From: Ginglymostoma cirratum
Lineage: Eukaryota
Length of the DNA: 64,000 nucleotides
Reading direction: 5' to 3'
Assembly (NCBI GenBank): GCA_024137785.1
Contig: JAHRHZ010000021.1
Span: forward strand, 36,801,691-36,865,690
Made by a program: the position numbers and the translations under genes. Positions 4,744 through 64,000 of the stretch are shown here, piece after piece. The stretch's first letter is position 1; each line of letters starts with the position of its first letter. The notes under the pieces are model-generated. The model did no database searches, was not told the DNA's origin, and worked only from the letters and a program-made list of their open reading frames with translations.

Positions 4744-4852
4744 GGAGATAGCAAGAACTGCAGATGCTGAAGTCAGAGACAACACAGTGCGAAGCTGGAG
4801 GAACACAGCAGGCCAGGCGGCATCAAAGGAGCAGGAATGTTAACATTTCAGA
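4744..4852 (-). mobile_element. Diverged Penelope terminal-repeat copy
   Basis: gctggaggaacacagcaggccaggcggcatcaaaggagcagg is similar to 5819-5925. Confidence 0.65.
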
Positions 4853-5399
4853 AAATTTTATAATTAGGGTGGTCATTGTAGCACACATTTGAAGAGAAGT
4901 GTCTTCTCTCAGCGTGTTGTGCAACATCTGAAGTCTACCTCAGAAGGCAGTGGAGGCAGGATCATCAAATATTTTTAAGAAATAGGTAAATAGTGTCATA
5001 ACTCACTGGAGTAGTGCACTGGAAATCAAAACCCACTATTCCCAGAGTCATGACATATGTTAAAAGATTTAGCCAAACTATCCTACTTCCCCAATTTACC
5101 GAACTGACAAACTCAGGTTAGAAGAGAACACTCAGCAGGTTTCTGCACTTAACAAGAAAATAACCATTTATTACAAACAGCTAACTGCATAAATTATAGC
5201 ATAAGATACACAATGTCTCTGGGCAACATCAGTCATCCTAAGAATAGGTCACTTTAAGGTTGTTTTATGCCTCTCTGGCTCAGCAGAACATTTTGTCTTG
5301 TTGACAGTTATCCTGCCATAACGTAGGCTCCTCACCCTCCCCCTTCACAGACCTTTCTTCTTGCTCCTGCATCTATCTTGTCCTCTGCCAAGGCATCCT

Positions 5400-6500
5400 C
5401 CTTTTGGCAATTAAAGTTGTGCAGAGTGCAGCATACCACTAATGATATGAGACAGTGTGCCTGGAGCATACTGTGTGGCACCACCTCACCAGTCAGGAGG
5501 GATCAGAATCTCATTTTCAGGAGGCCTACAGTCTGCTTGACAAAGATCCTTGTGGAAATTTGTGTGAAGTTGTATCTCTCCTTGAAGTTAGGATGAGAAC
5601 AAGCTGGATTTTAAAGGGTTATCCCTTGTCATCCAGCAATAAATGTTATATGAACTGAGAGCATTGAAAGAAGCTGACACCTTTGAGACATCCAGGATGT
5701 GTCATGGCAGGTGCCTAGATATTGAGCACTAACTTGCATTGTCCGTTGTGGTCTCAAACGATTGGTCCATTAAGGGATCCTTTTCTATTGATGAAAACTG
5801 CTGGTTATTGGTAGGATGAGATAAAAGGTACTGCAGGTGCTGGAGAATCCGAGATAACAAGGTGTGGGGCTGGATGAACACAGCAGGCCAAGCAGCATCA
5901 TAGGAGCAGGAAAGCTTGACGTTTCAGGCCTAGACCTTTCATCAGAAAAAAAAGGCATAAAACATGCATAAAAGAGGCATAAAACAACCTTAAAGTGACC
6001 TATTCTTAGGATGACTGATTTTTTTCTGATGAAGGGTCTAGGCCCCAAACGTCAAGCTTTCCTGCTCCTATGATGCTGCTTGGCCTGCTGTGTTCATCCA
6101 GCCCCACACCTTGTTATCTCGGTTATTGGTAGGATGTTCTGACTGTGCTTCGAACCAGTAGGAAACCAGTGATCAGTGAAATCTGAATGCCTTTACTGCC
6201 CGTCTCACCTTGTTAAAAGAGGAAAGAGAGAAATTGATGGGCTGTGGTGAGGAGGGTAACAGTGGCTTCCCGGATACAAGACTGAGTTGTGAAATAGCTG
6301 CAAAATGATACAGAAGTCCCCAGGAGTTCGCAGAGATGATCTGCAAGGCTAGAAATTCAGGGCAGCAGGAACCTTTAGAGCTACCCGGATAGGATTGCCA
6401 CTCAATCTTTGCAGCGACAGCTTCTTGTCTAGCTGCTGGTATATGTATCTAGTGGTGGGTTCAGACATCCTGAGGCATTACCTATGCTGTCACTCACTTA
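5400..6500 (-). pseudogene. PIF/Harbinger (HARBI1-like) DDE transposase fossil, interrupted by the composite Penelope insertion
   Basis: Minus-strand fragments PVALKVPAALNF, LLDDKG*P, ERYNFTQISTRIFVKQTVGLLKMRF and CCTLHNF, with frameshifts. Confidence 0.7.
5819..6120. mobile_element. Composite insertion: inverted pair of Penelope terminal repeats around a captured local sequence
   Basis: Minus copy 5819-5950 and plus copy 6020-6120; 16-nt TSD ggttattggtaggatg at 5803-5818 and 6121-6136. Confidence 0.85.
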
Positions 6501-7729
6501 GCTGGAGATAGTTGCATCAGAATCTGGAGATACAGCTCCAGGCAACAGCTTTCCTTCAATGTCTCGTCTCTTGCCTTGATCCTTCTCCCTCTGCAGCCTG
6601 CACCACAGCCAGTGGCAGCTGCTGCTGTTCCTGAGCTTGCAGATGGGTTCAATACTGGTTTCTTTAGAGCTGGACTGAAGAGGAGGGAGAGAAAACTGTG
6701 AGAGCAGAGAGGGAGAGGGAGCAGGGAGACAGGGAGCAAGGGGAGAGGGACCTGAAGTCACATGTAGGCCAGACCAGTTTCCTTCCCTAAAAGACATTAG
6801 TGAACCACATGAGTTTTTCCAATAATTGACAATGGATTTACGGTCATCATTAGACTCTTAGCTCCAGAATTTTATTGAATTCAAATCCTACCATCTGCTG
6901 AAGCAGGATTTGAACATGGGTCTCCAAAGTATTAGCGATAATACCATTAAGCCATTGCCTCCCATAATTCTGTTTCTCCTCCACCATTTCACAATCCCTA
7001 TTTCCCAAAGACCCTTCACCCTCTCCCTGTTTCTGTTGAGATCCATGTTACTGTCAATGTCCCCTTTTTACTCTTGAGGCTCCACAGAATCAAGATCCTG
7101 AAGCACATGGGGCCCCATAGATTCTCCAGGTCCCTTCCAGAGTCACCCTGTTTTTGTTTGTCTCCTCCACCAAGTTGGCCATTCTAATTCCCAAGCTGTT
7201 GTGTAGTGACTCTCCAGTTGATATCTGTCATTGCCAATGGACACATCCTTCCATACCATCACTTGGACATGTCTATTGCACTTTCACAGCTTACAGCAAA
7301 AGACTACAAATATATACAACATTTCAATGGAAGGAGAAATGGCAAAGAACTTGTGGAGGCTAAAGACGAAATGGCAGGTACATACCCGTTACATGTGGTC
7401 AGGTATCTGAAGTGCCAAGTTTCTTGATTGAGGAGAGGTTAATTGGAAATACTGACTTAATTCTAGCAGGTTGTGGAATCAATGAAATCCAAATACATAT
7501 AGATGAAATTCTTCACATCTGATGGTGAGAAGCTCAACTCCCCTTTTGAGGATGGAGAACTTACATACTAAAGGTCATCTTAGGACCTTTGCCACATGCT
7601 CCATTCTTCCCACCTCATCTGGCAGCAGAAGAAGAATACCCACAGAGCTTGACCATTACTGTAGAGGCTTCAGGATACTTAGAATTTTGTCATAAATATT
7701 AAAGAATGAATGGATAGGTAGAAGCCATA

Positions 7730-9000: not shown

Positions 9001-9976
9001 CTCCTTCTTTGTATCCTTGTAATTGCCATTATTTAAGTTTACGTCTCGAGTTATAGACTCACATTTCTTACACAAACCAAATGTGAGGTTCTACCATGTT
9101 ATGATTGCTCTTGCCTGAGGATCCTTTACTAAGAGATCTTCATTTAATCTTAAGTTATTTGCATTGTTCACCTGTATACTTTTATGCAAAGAACAGAAGC
9201 AAACTGTATACTCCAATATTTACAAACATGAATCAGGTTAATTGTCCATATCATGTCTATTTTAGGTGCCTTCCTCAATTTTCCCACTGTTGCTGCAAAT
9301 CAGTCTCTGTTCCACAGGCCACCAGGTTCTACACAAGCCTTTCCACCAGCTCCCAGCGTTGCTATTTTCACTTGCCAAGTTTGATTATGTTGTGTAGACA
9401 ATATACACGATATTCCTAATTCAAACATAAATCGACAAGCCAAATAATGTATAAGCTGAAAAAATCAATAAAAATATATTGGAAATATTCAGACAGCCTG
9501 GCAGTATCTCTGGAGAAAGTTGACAGGCTAGGATTTCTTTCCAGGGCCCTAACCCTGCCCAGGATTGATTTGGAGTGAGGAAACTGGAGACATCAGCGGC
9601 AGCATCCGGAAAGCAATTTTTTCAGGAGGCAACCAAGAAAGTGGCTACTCTGAGAGTCCTTTGATCAATAGCAGGTCAGCTCTTGAGACTTAAGGTTCAA
9701 TTGGAGGCCCTCATGTTTGAAGTATTCATGTAGTTAATTGAGAGGATATTTTATTAATTTATAAATTGACAAACCCTCCCCTGGATATCCAGCGGTATCA
9801 GCTGTGACTATACAGCTGTGGAAATGTTGAGAATTGGCAATACAGTTTTCTTCAGGTTGGAGTACTGGCCTCATTCTACATCCAGGGGGCACTTCCATTC
9901 CGTGGCCATTTTCCAGCCTCATTGCAGGGCCCACATATTGACTCAAATATTCCGGCTCCCATTTAACAGACTTTAA

Positions 9977-12583
9977 CAGCCCTGCTGGGTCTTCACCGTC
10001 CCCCCAGACCTCCCCTTCAGTGAGGATGAATAGTCAGTCCTCAGTAACGGGCTCACCGTTATCCCCCTCCACCCAAACATCGACAAATACCGCTCACGCT
10101 TGGACGTTGAACAGTTTTTCCGCCGCTGCCGGCCTCGCCTCCGCGCTTACTTCTTTAATCGTGAGGCTAACCCTCCCTCTACTGACCCCTTCTCCCGCCT
10201 CCAACACACCCCTTCCTCCTGGACACCACCCCAAGGCCTCCTACCCTCCCTCGACCTCTTCATCTCCACCTGCCATCAAGACATCAATCGCCTCAACCTC
10301 TCCACTCCTCTCACCCACTTCAACCTCTCCCCCACAGAACGTGCAACCCTCCGCTCCAATCCCAACCTCACCAGAAAACCCGCGGACAAGGGAGGCACAG
10401 TTGTAGTATGGCGCACTGACCTCATATCACCGAGGCCAGACGCCAGCTCTCTGACACCGCCTCCTACCGCCCCCTTGATCATGACCCCACCCCTGACCAC
10501 CAAAAAATCATCTCCCAAACCATCCACAACCTCATCACTTCAGGTAACCTCCCACCCGCAGCCTCCAACCTCATCGTTCCCCAACCCCGCACCGCCCGTT
10601 TCTATCTCCTTCCCAAAATCCACAAACCTGACTGCCCTGGTCGACCCATTGTCTCCGCCTGCTCCTGCCCCATTGAACTTATCTCCAATTATCTTGACTC
10701 CATTTTCTCCCCCTTGGTCCAGGAACTCCCCACCTACGTCCGTGACACCACCCATGCCCTCCACCTCCTCCAAAACTTCCGATTCCCTGGTCCCCAACAC
10801 CTCATCTTCACTATGGACGTCCAATCCCTGTATACTTGCATTCCCCATGCGGATGGCCTAAAGGCCCTTCGCTTCTTCCTGTCCTGCAGGCCCGACCAGT
10901 CCCCCTCCACTGACACCATCATCCGCTTAGCTGAACTCGTCCTCATCCTTAACAACTTCTCCTTCAATTCCTCCCACTTCCTACAGTCAAAGGGGGTGGC
11001 CATGGGTACCTGCATGGGCCCACGCTATGCTTGCCTCTTTGTAGGATAACTGGAACAATCCATCTTCCAAAGCTACACTGGCCCTATCCCCCACATTTTC
11101 CTCCTTTACATCAATGACTGTATCAGCGCCGCCTCGTACTCCCATGAGGAGCTCGAACAGTTAATCCACTTCACTAACACCTTCCACCCCAACCTTAAGT
11201 TCACCTGGACCATCTCCGATACCTCTTTCTCCTTCCTGGACCTCTCTGTTTCCATCTCTGGCAGCCACCTGGAAACCAATGTCCATTTCAAGCCCACCAA
11301 CTCCCACAGCTACCTAGAATACACCTCCTCTCACCCACCTTCCTGCAAAAATGGCTGTCCCCTATTCCCAACTCCTTTGCCTCTGCCGCATCTGCTCCTG
11401 AGACGAGGCATTCCACTCCCGGACATCCCAGATATCCTTGTTTCTCAAGGACCACAACTTCCCCTCCACAGTGGTCGAAAACACCCTCAACCTTGTCTCT
11501 CACATTTCCTGCAACTCATCCCACACACCACCTCCCTGCAATAACAACCAAAACAGAATCCCCCTCGTCCTCATGTACCACTCCACCAACTCCGGATCCA
11601 ACGCATCATCCTCCGGCACTTCTGCCATCTGCAATCTGACCCCACTACCAAAGACATTTTTCCCTCCCCACCCTTATCTGCTTTCCGGAGGGACCACTCT
11701 CCGTGACTCCCTTGTCCGCTCCACACTCCCCAGCAGCCCTACCACCCCCGGCACTTTTCCCTGCAACTGCAGGAAGTGCTACACCTGCCCCTACACCTTC
11801 CCCTCAACCCCATCCCAAACCCCAAGAAAACCTTCCATATCAAACAGATGTTCACCTGCACATCTGCTAATGTGGTATATTGTATCCGCTGTTTCCGATG
11901 TGGCCTCCTCTACATTGGGGAAACCAAGTGGAGGCTTGGGGACCGCTTTGTGGAACACCTACTTTCGGTTTGTGACAAACGACTGCACCTCCCAGTCGCG
12001 AACCATTTCAACTCCCCCACCCACTCCTTAGACAACATGTCCATCCTGGGCCTCCTGCAGTGCCACAACGATGTCACCTGAAGGTTGCAGAAACAACACC
12101 TCATATTTCGCTTGGGAACCCTGCAGCCCAATGATATCAATGTGGACTTCACAAGCTTCAAAATCTCCTATCCCCCTACCGCATCCCAAAACCAGCCCAG
12201 CTCGTCCCCACCTCCCTAACCCGTCCTTCCTCCCACTTATCCACTCCTCCCATCTCAAGGCCCACCCCCATCTCCTACCTACCAGCCTGCCCCCGCCTCC
12301 TTGACATGCCCATCATCTCTGGACTGACCTATCCCCTCCCTAACTCCCCACCTACATTCACCTTTCCGGGCTCCATCTGCACCTCTTTGACCTGTCTGTC
12401 TCCTCTCCACCTATCTTCTCCTTTATCCATCTTCTGTCCACCTCCCCCCTCTCCCTATTTATTTCAGAATCCACTTCCCCTGCCCCATTTCTGAAGAAGG
12501 GTCTAGACCCGAAACGTCAAGCTTTCCTGCTCCTATGATGCTGCTTGGCCTGCTGTGTCCATCCAGCTCTACACCTTGTTATT
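9977..12583 (+). mobile_element. Penelope-like retroelement (Neptune-like), 5'-truncated and degenerate: RT + Cys-rich linker + GIY-YIG endonuclease + C/T-rich tail + terminal repeat with hammerhead motif
   Basis: Peptides KPADKGG, MDVQSLYT, GVAMGTCMGP, YIND (decayed YIDD), FPCNCRKCYTCP, NVVYCIRC...LLYIGETK..LGDRFVEH; frameshifts and stops (e.g. TAA at 11047). Confidence 0.9.
12488..12521 (+). ncRNA. Minimal hammerhead ribozyme motif in the Penelope terminal repeat
   Basis: ttt-CTGAAGA-A-GGGTC-ta-GACCC-GAAAC-GTC-aag; predicted cleavage after C12518. Confidence 0.75.
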
Positions 12584-12799
12584 TCAGGTGGTCTAATTGG
12601 TTACAACCTGCTTGGAGGCAGGTTGCCATTATCACTGCCAATAAACAAACCCTGCACCCTCAACAAATCCTGCTTACTCCAATATATCTCAAAAGATGGC
12701 AATATGCTGGCAAACCAGCACTCTGACACATAGAAGGAAATTATCAGCCCAGTTGTCTCCTGCACCACTTCTGTAGTCAAAAGAGAACTTGGCACACAC

Positions 12800-15403: not shown

Positions 15404-15862
15404 TTATTTGCAAACAAACTGATCAACTATTTGTGTGCATTTTTTGCATTTGACGTAACAGCACCAATGGAATTTACAATGGCATCTTTCAACTTTCGTG
15501 GTCTTGAACTGATCATAACCCCGTCCGCAGCACATTAGCTCACAACCATCCATTCCCTCAGAGGTCTTGTTACAGAGGCGGCCCGTTGTGCCCAGGGAGC
15601 CTGTGGTCTTATTCTTAACACAGTAATCAGGGCTCTGATCGAGATAAACTAGATCATCTGCAGTGGGAGGGTTGAAGCGGCTGTTTACTAGCTCCAGCTT
15701 CCCTTTGCGGTTAATTTTCATGGCAGCAGCGCTGTCATACTTTTCTTTCAGCAGATCACCCACTTTCCGGAAATCAGCCAGTTGAAGCCAGCAAGTCTTC
15801 AAGCTGCAGGAGCCTGAAACACCGTGACACTTGCATGCCACATCCGCAAGATTATACACAGC
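15404..15862 (-). CDS. wnt5b: Wnt-5b last coding exon ([19 protein letters not shown]...DQFVCK*)
   Basis: 459 nt; acceptor ttttttcacag|GCT; [10 protein letters not shown] lipidation motif and Cys-rich C-terminus; [11 protein letters not shown] is Wnt5b-like; spliced total 1080 nt = 359 aa + stop. Confidence 0.96.
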
Positions 15863-15997
15863 CTGTGAAAAAAAATGAAAGACAGAAGATTTACATCTCT
15901 AGAATTAAATTTCATTTGCTAAGATAAATACCACACTTTGCAATTAATGTTTAACAGCTCTGCTAATTCCAGGTAAACAAATTGTGAACCACAATTT

Positions 15998-16377
15998 GTA
16001 TCAGAGATAAAAGGCATCTGCAGTACCTTTTATCTCTGATACAATTTTAACCCCACTGCGAAGCCTCTTCTAAGGATGCCTACCCTGAAGAAGTTACCCT
16101 CCTCCCTCCGGACAAACCTCAGGGAATTTCTCTCCCACTGCAACTCTCTCATACACCTTTACTGGCTCCATCCCCACCTCTTCGACTTGTCTGCCTCCTC
16201 TCCACCTATCCTCTCCTCTATCCATCCCCTATCCGCCTCCCCCTCTCTCCCTATTTATTTCAGAACCCTCTTCCCCTCCCCAATTTCTGATGAAGGGTTT
16301 AGGCCCGAAATGTCAAGTTTTCCTGCTCCTATGATGCTGCTTGACCTGCTGTGTTCATCCAGCCCCATGCTTGTTAT
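15998..16377 (+). mobile_element. Rearranged non-autonomous Penelope derivative in the last wnt5b intron
   Basis: 16-nt TSD ttgtgaaccacaattt (15982-15997, 16378-16393); 19-bp hairpin at its 5' end; tail and terminal repeat similar to 12355-12583. Confidence 0.8.
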
Positions 16378-19300
16378 TTGTGAACCACAATTTACCTGAA
16401 CGTCCCTGGAGTATAGGAGGCAAGAGAATCAAGTTACATCTTCCGAATTACTGACAAGTGAACTTTACTGGAAAGTTCATATGTATATAATTAGTGAAGA
16501 AAAGATCAGAATAAGCTCTTCAAAATGATGTTGTAGCAAAAGCAAATTCACAACACTGTGAGAAAATTATACAGAAATAATAAAAACTGCAACTTCCAAG
16601 CAAATTACAAAATGAAATGACCGTGTAAGACACAGTATGGGCTCTTAAAAGAGAAGCACATTTCACTTGCAGGCTTACAGCAAAAACAGGTAATTGATGG
16701 TGTTGGTAGAATCCCTAAGACTTTGGACTAATTTCATCACTGTGATGAGAGTGGCAGCAATGCAAGGTTCTGAATGTTACACATTGGCAGCCATTAGATA
16801 TCTCACCATAGGCCCGAACAGACATTCACGATGCTGTCTTCCTGCTCTCAGTAATGTACAAAAACAACAAGTTGCAGTCATATGGCCAATCTTACAAAAG
16901 TATAATGTGAAAAGAAATGCTTCCTCAAAATATGCTGAGTGAGGTACGTAGGGTGGCTGAGGCAGAATCACACCTGGAAAGGTGGTAAGAGAATAGAATG
17001 ACAGGGAGTAGTGATGGTTTATGTTAGGAATTGGCAGAGGACCAGAGTGTGCTGTGTGAAGTACACAAGCAGGAGAAATAAGCAGCAGCATGACTGGCTG
17101 AAAGGAAAGGGAGGGTGCAGAAAGGACAGGTCATGTGAAAGAAAGGGGTGAAAGTAGTGTGTTCAGATCCAGAGCAGCCAAAATGTCGATGGGGATAGCC
17201 TGAAGCATCATATACCAATTTTGGGGTTTCCAGGGTCAAAAACTTATGTTGAATGGACCCCAGTCTATCAGTAATTCAAATGGCAGACTACCAATTGTTG
17301 GCTGCCGTCAGTGAAAACAGAGGGATGAGGAGGAGGGTAAAATCAACCGTGAGCGAGAAGAACCTAACTCAGCCTTTCAGTGTATAGTGTTTTCAGGTTG
17401 TTAATCAATTAGCACCAACAGACCTAGATCACCAACAGATGGTCGAAGAGCAGTAGAAATGAAACTGTAAGGAAAGTTAAGTCCAGCAAGCCAGCCAAAA
17501 TTAAAAGGTAACTCTAGCAAATCAATGCAGATGAGGAAGATGTAGTAAGGGGAAGAACATACAAGACTGGACCAGCAGTAGGCATTTGGAAAATTAATCC
17601 AAACTAGTCCATTAGAAAAAATGATAGAAGAGTTCTGGAGGAGAAGTGGAGCAAAGAGATAATAAGGAATCATATTGGAAATATGGTAATACACAAGGTC
17701 ATAGCTCTGACTCAGCAGAGAAATAGAAAATGTGTCTTCAAAAGCAGGCCACATACTGGTATTGAGGCAGTTAGAGAGTGGTCTCTTGGTTAAAAAGACA
17801 GGTGGGAAAGATATGGATCACTTCAGCTGAGAAGAATTGAAGAAATTGAATTAAGTCTTGGAGAAAGATGCTTTAGTTCAGGTCACAAATTGCAATGGAG
17901 TTGTGCAGGTATGTCTCAGCCATAAGTGATTTCAAAGATCACGTTTTACAGTAAACTGACACTAGGGATTGTGATTGTAATAGTGAAAAGGTATATGGTG
18001 CTGCCCCATTCTCAATTACTTTTGCAAGATTCCAGCAGCAAAGAGGATCCAAGAACTCCACGCAGTAAAGCAACTGTATTGCTATGGGCAAGATGAAGAG
18101 ATAGGTCCCAAGAACTACCTCATCCAGTACGGGGATTGAACCCAGAACTGTTTGTATTGTTCCACACCATTCTCTTACACCTTCAGTCCCAAATAGCAAC
18201 AGAGTTGAAAGGCAACAGCACGTTAGTTGGACTACCTCAGCTTATGAACTTGTACATTGTTCATTTTACAATCTTCACAAATTCCTTAAATATGTTTTCA
18301 TGGTGAAACATTTTGCAATTACAATCACAATAATAACCAACAAGATATTTGAGGGAACCATTAGCGATGTAATGTGTTTGCTCAGTTGGAGGACATGTTA
18401 GGTGAACCCAACATGACACTGCATAAGAAAATTCTCTGCAAGATCCAGTATTAGTGATAAAATGGTGAGGGGGATAGAGAGCTGGTCAGTAGGTAGATTA
18501 TTATACTATAACAAAATAATAAGTTCGGATCTGTTTGGAGACTGGTCACCAACAATGGCTGTTCTTTGTATTTTTTTCGATGTTCAATTATATAAGACAT
18601 TGTTGCAGAAATCTGAAAATTTGAAGCTATTACTAAAATGGGTGTGATTCTCAGTATTGTACACTTGTCCAGTTAGTTCAGCTAGATCTTAATCCACAGA
18701 CAATTGGGCTTATGACTGCTTTGCCATGAAGCAGTAGCTAGAACAAATACACTACCAGGATCTATTTATTCGACAGAAGTCTGTAAATGAATTAATATTA
18801 TTTTTGTATTCTCACTGAGGCATTTCATTGTCTTACACAAGGACAGAGTCCAATTGTGGTCTAATCTCTTGGTAGGTATTATTCTTTTGCACTTGCAGCA
18901 TCTACTGTGCTTTGCTTTTGTGTTAAAAGAGGCCATCTGGTTGATAAAGAGGAAATAAATAAAGGAACATCACTCCTCAGCTCCTTAGTAATGTTGAACT
19001 ATATAAAAGGAGACAAACTAAAGGGTTTAAGTTTTAAAGAAGATGCTGGAGATAAGATGTATCGGATAGATATGTTTTCTGCCGATTTCTAAAATAAATA
19101 TAGTGTAAAGTGTAATAATTGCATAAAAACAAAAAGTTTGTGTGTATGTGTGGGGGGTGAGGGGGGCCGGGGATGCAGTGTGCTACAGAAGTTAAAAGCC
19201 AAACAAAAGTGAAGGAACCTCAAGGATAAATGATAGTATTAGACTTAGTAACTGAATCCTCATGTGTCAATGAAGTGGCCAGATTAATGGTTGAACTTAT

Positions 19301-21181: not shown

Positions 21182-21577
21182 CCTCCCTAACCTGTTTTTC
21201 CTCTCACCTCAAGCCACACCCCCATCTCCTATCTACTAACATCATCCCGCCCCCTTGACCTGTCTGTCCTCCCTGGACTGACCTATCTCCTCCCCACCCC
21301 CCCTACCTACACTCACCTTTACTGGCTCCATCCCTGCCTCTTCGACTTGTCTGCCTCCTCTCCACCTATCCTATCCTCTATCCATCCTCTATCCACCTCC
21401 CCCTCTCTCCCTATTTATTTCAGAACCCTCTTCCCCTCCCCCATTTCTTGAAGGGTTTAGGCCCGAAACGTCAAGTTTTCCTGCTCCTATGATGCTGCTT
21501 GACCTGCTGTGTTCATCCAGCCCCATGCTTGTTATCTCAGATTCTCCAGCATCTGTAGTACCTTTTATCTCTTTATT
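21182..21577 (+). mobile_element. 3' fragment of the Penelope-like element (tail + full terminal repeat, hammerhead core damaged)
   Basis: Similar to 12210-12583; CTGATGA reduced to cttga; possible TSD acaggccaa at 21173-21181 and 21578-21586. Confidence 0.8.
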
Positions 21578-61330: not shown

Positions 61331-63519
61331 AGTCCTTATTCCTATGAATGCAGCACAAATGGTGCTGTGCAAATACAGGAGATTATAAGTACTGAATGAT
61401 TACTGATACGTTGTACCTCACATCCTACATCACCCAAGAAGACAGCATTTTTCAATACCAGGTGGTCTACCTAGTCTTATGGCAGAGTTGTTTCCCTGAA
61501 AGATGATAAATGAAAAAGCACACTATTCAGTACCAACACCATTCAAACAACAATCAGATGTGACAGGGAAGGTGGGCCAGCCTTTGGATGGTAATCCAAG
61601 TCAGATTATTTTAAATGATAACTCCTAATACCTGCTCCAGCCTCAATAATCTTCCCTCACCTTTAAAGATACTTGCTCGATGAAGTGCTAGACAGTTTAA
61701 TTGATGCTAGCCACCCAAGAAATTGGCTCCTGATGATGAATTTGGGCAATAAACAGTATGATTAGCAATGTTTGGCTACAAACTAAAGGAAATAATCAGG
61801 CATCACAAAGTCAGTGTTCTGCCTGCATTGTAAACAACATGTTTTCAGAGGCTCTCCAACTCAGCATCATGGCTTCAATGCTTAGATTGTGGGTGGCAAT
61901 ACTTTATCATTATTGAATCTCTGACCTATGTTCTATTTTCCACTAACTCTCCTATCCAAAGTGAAGCAGTGGTAAGTGGTCCCTCATCTTCAACCTTGCG
62001 CTTTGCTCAACCAATTCTGTTGCATCTCTCTCACTTTAAGCCCCAATCTCTACCCTGAATTTCTTCTTAATATATCCTCCTTTATTTCAAACCTGAATCT
62101 CTAGTCTAGACTGCTGTCAATGAGTTTAACCTTCATCTAATGGATGTCTGTCCGTTGATTTCACTGCCCTCCTTATACCTTTGTGCACCATACAAACCTA
62201 TGCATGGCCATGCTGTCATTCTTAGCTTCACCAAATTCCTTAATGAACTTGCCCTTCCATTCTCTCTAATCCCTGGCACTACAGATGCCCCTAATCCCTA
62301 ACATTAATCGTTATTCTACTGACACCAGTCTGTACACCCCTTCCTGTTTGCCTCACCTTTGGACAAACTGCCAGCTTCAAACCCCAAGGTTTCAAACTTC
62401 ATCTATAAAATGTTGTATTGTTACCTCCCCACCCTCCCTTAAAACCCAACTATTGTTTGATCACCCCTCATGATTAGCATCTATTTTCCAATACGTCATT
62501 CGAAGTGCTTCTTTTTCCCATATTAAAAGCTTTAAATAAACGCAAATGGTTATTCTTGTTGATTAAATTTCTGATAATAATTTGCGACAAACTATTCTGG
62601 AGAAAGAAGAGACAAGACATTGATTCTAAGACTACAAGGTCATAATATTTTTGAAGATGTTTAACCATTTGTTAAATGGCTTGGTGATAAACAATAGGGG
62701 GAACTGGGAAGATTTTGTGTTCGATGTTTTACTTTTAAAGTGTTATTTGATCTCACTAATCTAGTAATGCAATAGTATAACTGGCCTGAAGTTAAGGAGT
62801 GGCAAAATGAGCCAAAGTTCACACTCCTGATTACTGTCCAGAGGCTGACACCCTCCACAACCTGAAAAGCAAACACAAAGGAAAAGAAAAGATCACACTC
62901 AGTTGTGGTGCCTCCCATTTATTGTCAATAGCCTGTTAAAATTCATGTCTGGGTTTAGTCATGCAACTGCATCTCAGCACAGTCCATAGCTGTGAGTAAG
63001 GGAGGGGGTTGGAAGGGAAACAAATAATCAAGGTAAATAGATGACTAAAGTGATCAAAATGAAAATATTTGCATATATGCTTTATATTAATATGCTTTCA
63101 CTTCCTACTTGTCTGTTAATTATGCAATCATTGCACTGAAGGTACAGGGAATTGGATGCAGCACTTACTTTATTTATGTTTTAATTTTTTAAGGCCCTTT
63201 CCTTAAGGCACTATTTCTCACTGGTGTACGGCCTCATGCAAGTCAGTTACTTCTGAAGTTTTGTCCATGCTATTGTTCATTCATGAGCTCTGACAATTAA
63301 TGTCAACAGGCGATCCAACGATTGACCAAATTAGAGCCAATTTTAACATCTCTTCTTCCAACGTTCAGCAGCATGTACACATTGCAGAGCTGCCTGATAG
63401 TGATTAAAAGTAGGAATTCAAGTCAATTATTTTGCCTCACTAATCAGTGGTCACTGAGATCAAATGTATTTACATTCCCAGCGGTTATCAGCATTAACAA
63501 CAATTTGTATTTTATATTA

Positions 63520-63597
63520 GATAACAAGGTGTAGAGCTGGATGAACACAGCAGGCCAAGCAGCATCAGAGGAGGAGGAAAGCTGACGTTTCAGGCCT
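63520..63597 (-). mobile_element. Truncated Penelope terminal-repeat copy
   Basis: ataacaaggtgtagagctggatgaacacagcaggccaagcagcatc...gctgacgtttcaggcc matches the other copies; the CUGANGA half is missing. Confidence 0.75.
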
Positions 63598-64000
63598 TGA
63601 AGGGTCAAATTGAGCGAATGTGATATATATGAAATTCCAGGAAGTCTTCAACAAGGCACTGGACAGGAAACTATTAGAAGAGATTAATCAGTTTGGAACA
63701 GAGGAGAAATAACAATAATTCATAAATAATCTAAAACTTTTAGTCTGTGAGGAATTATTCAGAAATATTTTGAAACAGTTCACATTTTTCTTTTAATTTG
63801 AGAATAGTACAAAGATGCCACAGAAGACAACATTTTAGAAGAAATTAAGCAAGTTGCTCCTTTTTTAAAAAAAGAAATTTAAATGGAACTATGGGCTTTA
63901 ATTTGACTTTGCCTGCAATGGAATTGTTAGAAGTGTAGTTCGGGTGGCAATATAAACACCCAAACTCTCAATGTCCAACACCAAAAAAGTGAGAAACAAA

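Follow-up and report, generated by a model that had tools for sequence, protein, structure and literature searches.

Insertions of endonuclease-positive Penelope-like elements (PLEs) typically combine a direct copy with an adjoining inverted, 5'-truncated copy and carry a one-sided tail of 30–40 bp (PMC8557442; Pen2a_Av of Adineta vaga, PMC3846280). In vitro, the protein of a lizard PLE cuts both strands of the target and extends each of them, and its two reverse transcriptase (RT) start sites flank the tail (PMC11167929). How the cDNA arms become joined, late in integration, is described as unresolved (PMC11167929, PMC8557442). In A. vaga, host sequence is captured between solo pLTRs and flanked by target-site duplications (TSDs); the cargo ranges up to a whole gene and is read as mobilised in trans, and the available text of that report mentions neither a local donor nor a stutter (PMC3846280). 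Among other retroelements, the cDNA ends of R2 snap back and are extended on target DNA close by before joining (PMC11371274, PMC11331408), and locally templated DNA is described in three L1 insertions in one study (PMC11702581) and in 22 of 3,598 in another (10.1101/2024.08.27.596794). Polymerase theta typically copies templates within 30 bp of a break in primary tracts that rarely exceed 10 bp (PMC7165422), its signature being repeated abortive priming from AT-rich, microhomology-poor ends (PMC7165422, PMC2895639), and an inverted orientation of the insert is the outcome of intramolecular fold-back (PMC7165422, PMC5068794).

The insertion described here, located in a 64,000-nt window (the whole stretch of DNA that was analysed), is real, a single clear example in fossil form of a kind of patch that repair is known to leave at other jumping genes: its inverted layout is standard for PLEs (PMC8557442, PMC3846280), and local fillers are known from L1 and R2. 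It comprises 318 nt (5819–6136, one TSD copy counted in) and is bounded by a 16-nt left TSD at 5803–5818 and its exact copy, the right TSD, at 6121–6136, both read on the plus strand. The left arm lies on the minus strand and consists of a 30-nt PLE tail (5819–5848), which the right arm lacks, followed by a terminal repeat with a putative minimal hammerhead motif (5849–5953), whose core at 5921–5945 is intact and whose plus strand ends in an A run. The right arm is a tailless, plus-strand terminal repeat (6019–6120) that begins in a T run; in its hammerhead core, C replaces the G of GAAA, and the GG at 6121–6122 is common to this arm and the TSD. Positioned head-to-head, 5849–5952 and 6019–6122 are complementary at 101 of 104 positions, and both stop at one T run, no more than 1 nt apart. 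The preliminary description had given, for 5803–6136, 16-nt TSDs, a minus-strand terminal repeat ahead of a plus-strand one, and two arms able to fold into a hairpin of about 100 bp. All of this is borne out, the orientations by reference to a long RT/GIY-YIG copy at about 9.9–12.6 kb and the hairpin by a DNA fold of −138 kcal/mol (z −23) for the 104-nt arms, an energy that restates the inverted repeat.

Inverted arms, a one-sided tail and a TSD together make a textbook Penelope layout. Specifically, the locus shares with the endonuclease-positive PLE insertions described in the sources above an RT/GIY-YIG element, head-to-head repeats with an inverted truncated copy, a 30-nt tail on one arm, and a TSD; a candidate minimal hammerhead motif, recognised by pattern, would add to the likeness. 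It departs from those descriptions in that no ORF lies between the arms and the junction is occupied by local filler rather than by a palindrome or an overlap; the TSD of 16 nt likewise compares with 8–10 nt in the rotifer cases reported there. L1-type twin priming does not fit the layout: in that process a single RNA supplies the inverted and direct parts from neighbouring regions that hardly overlap (PMC11702581), whereas both arms here copy one and the same 104-nt region.

Judged by sequence, the arms are the 3' terminal repeat of a PLE that would encode an RT and a GIY-YIG endonuclease. They match 12488–12585 at 92–93%, which is the 3' end of a long, frameshifted Penelope-like copy on the plus strand (~9900–12590) with an RT, a cysteine-rich linker and a GIY-YIG region. 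In this copy, RVT_1 (E 2.8e-4) and GIY-YIG (E 0.024) matches follow each other in the expected order, both below the Pfam curated cut-offs; a stricter first Pfam scan of the copy returned no RT or GIY-YIG match, and a solved-structure search with its RT returned nothing relevant. A cysteine-rich linker ahead of the endonuclease has been linked to Neptune and Nematis (PMC8557442). Nine substantial copies of this repeat, both arms counted, are present in the window, and exact TSDs of 12–16 nt occur at four of eight element ends tested there. The 30-nt tail is also present in the copies at 21541–21570, 4746–4775 and 16014–16035, and the two 3' end points, 30 nt apart, recur in other window copies. 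In the public sequencing run X11, loose ends among the matches listed (24 of about 1,600) fall at 5818 in 113 records and at 5851 in 130. A pattern scan based on the published definition of the minimal hammerhead motif (PMC4209133) recovers the core boxes, a short stem II and a palindromic ACGT in both arms and in three other copies; the Rfam scan gave no hammerhead match, and RNA of the hammerhead region folds no better than shuffled sequence. Two Rfam matches to microRNA precursors were rejected; they score below the gathering thresholds and arise from the hairpin.

The two arms show three private differences. Two of these, changes private to the left arm within 5926–5937, are partners in a single hammerhead stem II pair whose pairing is kept, and one of the two sits at a CpG; the coincidence may be due to chance.

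The insertion interrupts a decayed PIF/Harbinger-type DDE transposase remnant on the minus strand (5335–6588; Pfam DDE_Tnp_4, E 8.7e-07) that is full of stops and frameshifts. A word-index search with the remnant found no homologues, whereas an exhaustive search found 16, whose tblastn matches cover 6588 to 5335. When the 318 nt are removed in silico, 11 of the 16 homologues align in a single frame from one side of the TSD to the other, a further one stops within it and four fall short of it; with the filled sequence, none of the 16 crosses the site. The printed alignment to a homologue has no gap across the TSD and lacks about seven codons just to the right of the right TSD. This single reading frame across the removed segment establishes that the TSD is a true duplication and that 5819–6136 is a clean insertion. 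The last exon of a wnt gene is on the minus strand at 15404–15898 (Pfam wnt, E 1e-64), about 9 kb upstream of the insertion with respect to the gene.

Between the arms lies a filler of which all but one base can be traced to the same donor, a single-copy 47-nt stretch at 5228–5274 (plus strand) that lies outside the insertion and just past the matched part of the transposase remnant. On the plus strand, a first, abortive copy of 12 nt (5953–5964, reverse complement of 5261–5272) shares its first A with the A run of the left arm; it is followed by an unmatched T (5965) and a second abortive copy of 8 nt (5966–5973, reverse complement of 5263–5270), and then by a third, long copy of 47 nt (5973–6019, reverse complement of 5228–5274). 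The three copies thus start at donor positions 5272, 5270 and 5274, within 5 nt of one another, and end differently. The end of the donor lies 529 nt from the left TSD and 699 nt from its 47-nt copy, so that the donor spans 529–575 nt (about 550 nt) from the TSD. The donor may represent the final codons of the transposase ORF; against a 12-residue profile for this end, derived from 8 of the 16 homologues only, it ranks 391 of 127,930, and second of 264 locally.

The exact reverse-complement relationship of 5973–6019 to 5228–5274 had been reported in the preliminary description and proves to be a maximal exact match, with a blastn E value of 2.6e-20 against the window and a next-best match at E 0.26. 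Across 1000 base shuffles of the spacer, taken as a cut of 66 nt and compared with about 5 kb on each side, the longest exact match ranges from 8 to 17 nt (mode 10), as against 46 nt observed. The stuttered units noted ahead of the 47-mer resolve into the 12-nt and 8-nt copies of the same donor end plus the one T. Within the window, the 11–12-mer of the first copy occurs only there, in the 47-mer and at the donor; the 8-nt copy is not significant by itself and draws its weight from being flanked on both sides by copies of that donor end. A scan of the window for exact repeats of at least 18 nt within 5 kb of one another revealed no further locally templated filler. Microhomology at the switches amounts to 0–1 nt, and these matches do not fix the direction of copying.

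The filler resembles the A. vaga captures in that unrelated host DNA sits between terminal repeats and the whole unit is enclosed by a TSD, but the cargo here is only 47 nt long, comes from 0.55 kb away, is inverted and was primed three times, a combination that differs from those cases as described. With L1 and R2, as reported in the sources cited above, it shares the extension of a cDNA end on nearby target DNA before sealing, in the reverse-complement orientation of R2 snap-back; the retroelement class is nevertheless another one, and L1 templates typically lie within 15 bp of the site (10.1101/2024.08.27.596794). A further likeness in form is to the inverse-repeat insertions attributed to polymerase theta, which also show overlapping copies of one flank, repeated abortive priming, AT-rich sequence and priming on 0–1 nt (PMC7165422, PMC5068794, PMC2895639). 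Here, too, the flank is repeated in overlapping rounds, yet a template 529–575 nt from the TSD and tracts of 12, 8 and 47 nt fall outside the reported ranges of distance and tract length. The filler works like a polymerase theta insertion but is not classed as one.

These features are probably the product of one integration event of an endonuclease-bearing PLE, with fold-back of the left cDNA end on the flank to which it is attached. In such an event, the element's endonuclease would cut the two strands 16 nt apart and leave 3' overhangs, a stagger suggested by the 16-nt TSD. Each 3' end would then prime cDNA synthesis on element RNA, the right one at an inner start site and the left one at an outer site 30 nt further 3'; two start sites at this distance would yield head-to-head arms with a one-sided tail. 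Both cDNAs would halt in the U run that immediately precedes the hammerhead core on its 5' side and thus end in A runs, which are visible in the sequence of both arms and would not allow the ends to pair with each other. The left cDNA end would next fold back on its own top strand, bared over at least about 575 nt by resection or unwinding, and prime with 0–1 matching bases at 5272, 5270 and 5274 to add 12, 8 and finally 47 nt, probably in this order and direction. Since the top-strand filler is the reverse complement of the upstream top strand, the simplest template is that strand itself, which is continuous with the left cDNA. Finally, the last T would anneal to the right cDNA's A run, after which the gap would be closed. 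Two other routes were rejected: the snap-back of a single cDNA on itself, because the tail is on the left arm and absent from the right, and the copying of a master element that was already inverted, given the local origin of the filler.

The preliminary description had likewise proposed a single integration with switching onto neighbouring DNA and slippage of the primer. Local switching with repeated re-priming fits every junction. As to the enzyme of the fold-back step, given there as RT template jumping or Pol-theta-like repair, a host end-joining polymerase such as polymerase theta is somewhat favoured, and the RT of the element is a substantial second candidate. What resulted is dead and neutral, and nothing in it points to a function.

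Several observations weigh against a single event. The distance of about 550 nt and the 47-nt tract are atypical of known templated fillers, the only independent contig of the donor differs at two positions inside the 47-mer, and the divergence between the arms (3 of 104 positions, against 0 of 47 between filler and donor) would allow for a filler younger than they are. This contrast also speaks for a two-step history, in which a near-perfect palindrome centred on the A/T runs was inserted first and was later broken at its centre, by cleavage of a cruciform or hairpin, and patched from local DNA. Such a history is rather unlikely. Its proposed precursor is plausible in form, as the arms meet at the same T run within 1 nt and would leave a spacer-free centre if the filler were absent, and palindromes are fragile sites (PMC7999016). 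The difference in age between arms and filler, however, is not significant: at the rate of the arms, 1.4 differences between filler and donor would be expected, and the chance of seeing none is ~0.26. Moreover, no arm sequence has been lost at the centre, as would often happen in a later break with resection; the two A-run ends would need a bridge already at insertion; and two events have to be assumed in place of one.

Quite improbable is a variant in which the right, bottom-strand cDNA was the one extended, the RT jumping to a minus-strand RNA or to the bottom strand at 5228, copying 47 nt, slipping back twice and joining the left cDNA. Three of four bases match between the cDNA end and the start of the donor, so that the inverted repeat reaches 5225/6022; RT jumps to other RNAs are described for R2 and L1; and the minus strand carries both the transposase remnant and, at a distance of ~9 kb, the wnt gene. 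This route nevertheless requires an RNA 3' end or a bared bottom strand at 5228, with no evidence for either, while resection from the left end bares the top strand and not the bottom one. Two terminal slips are also less natural than three starts at one place, which is the pattern that fold-back of the left cDNA end would produce.

Public sequencing runs bear on the remaining explanations. None of them contains half of the words of the stretch (best 0.25), and 4 of 23 runs were compared. In these four, no record spans the insertion, and none spans the empty site; in three, coverage is almost confined to the repeats, and these runs resemble a relative, so that their gaps carry no weight. At 86% likeness, the donor region (5205–5326) has a depth of 3 in X11 and of 0, 0 and 0 in the three other runs, as compared with 147–2,891 beside the donor at 5022–5082 and about a million over the arms. 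The unique flanks are represented in X11 by three 151-nt contigs, of which two are identical to the window. One of these contigs, at 6130–6280, includes just 7 nt of the TSD and is compatible with an empty or a filled site. The third (5198–5348), the one contig that has the donor in its own flanking context, differs from the window only at 5231 and 5246. Both differences are A>G and lie inside the donor, where the filler keeps the letters of the window; the chance that both would fall there is ~0.011 if they were random over 453 nt, a value computed after they had been seen.

An assembly or read artefact, such as a fold-back chimera, is very improbable, even though inverted PLE structures are hard to assemble (PMC8557442) and the four runs contain no spanning record. 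An artefact would have to account for an exact TSD, a tail at the second end point of the family, three private arm differences, the unmatched T and the restored collinearity of the transposase, and the window contains a second inverted insertion with a 16-nt TSD at 15982–16393. That the 47-mer is a piece of a repeat that reached both sites independently, the common-repeat objection anticipated in the preliminary description, is scarcely credible despite the donor's position next to a multi-copy region and at the end of an old Harbinger-type transposon remnant, given only two matches in the window, the near-absence of the donor from the four runs, a remnant too decayed by stops and frameshifts for a distant copy to match at 47 of 47 positions, and stutter copies that derive from the same donor end.

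The A>G differences at 5231 and 5246 may represent an allele, RNA editing of a donor–filler duplex (if the run is RNA), or an error in a contig of depth 3. If they are allelic, the filler copies its own haplotype. Each of the two positions is followed by a 3' G, and ADAR prefers sites with a 3' G.

A literature search, confined largely to openly readable papers, found no description of a local, inverted and stuttered filler in a PLE junction. The fossil preserves, base by base, a record of late PLE steps: two priming sites, two A-run ends and three re-primings on a distant local template. As a single case it is an anecdote without sign of function. A genome-wide count that recorded for each such donor its side, its orientation and its distance would gauge the extent of single-stranded target DNA during integration and would help to tell RT from host repair.

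Inverted arrangements recur in the family. The second inverted insertion (15982–16393) consists of a very short minus-strand arm followed by a tail and a partial tandem, with no local filler. Contigs from other family loci in the public runs join one arm to another in 569 cases and give 640 rows of sequence that lies between the two sides; we read inverted pairs with short fillers as common at these loci, among the joints and rows listed (15 of 569 and 12 of 640, respectively). It is conceivable, but doubtful, that the telomerase-related RT of the element routinely bridges PLE arm joints in these genomes by re-priming repeatedly on single-stranded target DNA, with the copied stretch 0.5–1.3 kb away on the same strand. 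Were this so, PLE integration would pass through a long, one-sided single-stranded intermediate and would keep producing short inverted duplications of local DNA, from which double-stranded RNA arises; the A>G differences at 5231 and 5246 inside the donor are what editing of a donor–filler duplex would give.

Other copies of the family in the window show further irregularities. A minus-strand terminal repeat with a tail at 4746–4851, 1 kb from the insertion, is older (79% identical), and no TSD was found around it. Another minus-strand copy, at 63519–63612, is short and abuts, on its 5' side, 9 nt of the hammerhead region in inverted orientation; here too, no TSD was found. Additionally, the short arms at 5953, 6019, 47503 and 40273 all begin in a T run just 5' of the hammerhead core, which comprises 4–8 T in these four arms as compared with 3 in the long copies. 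This common start suggests a preferred RT stop or an RNA 5' end.
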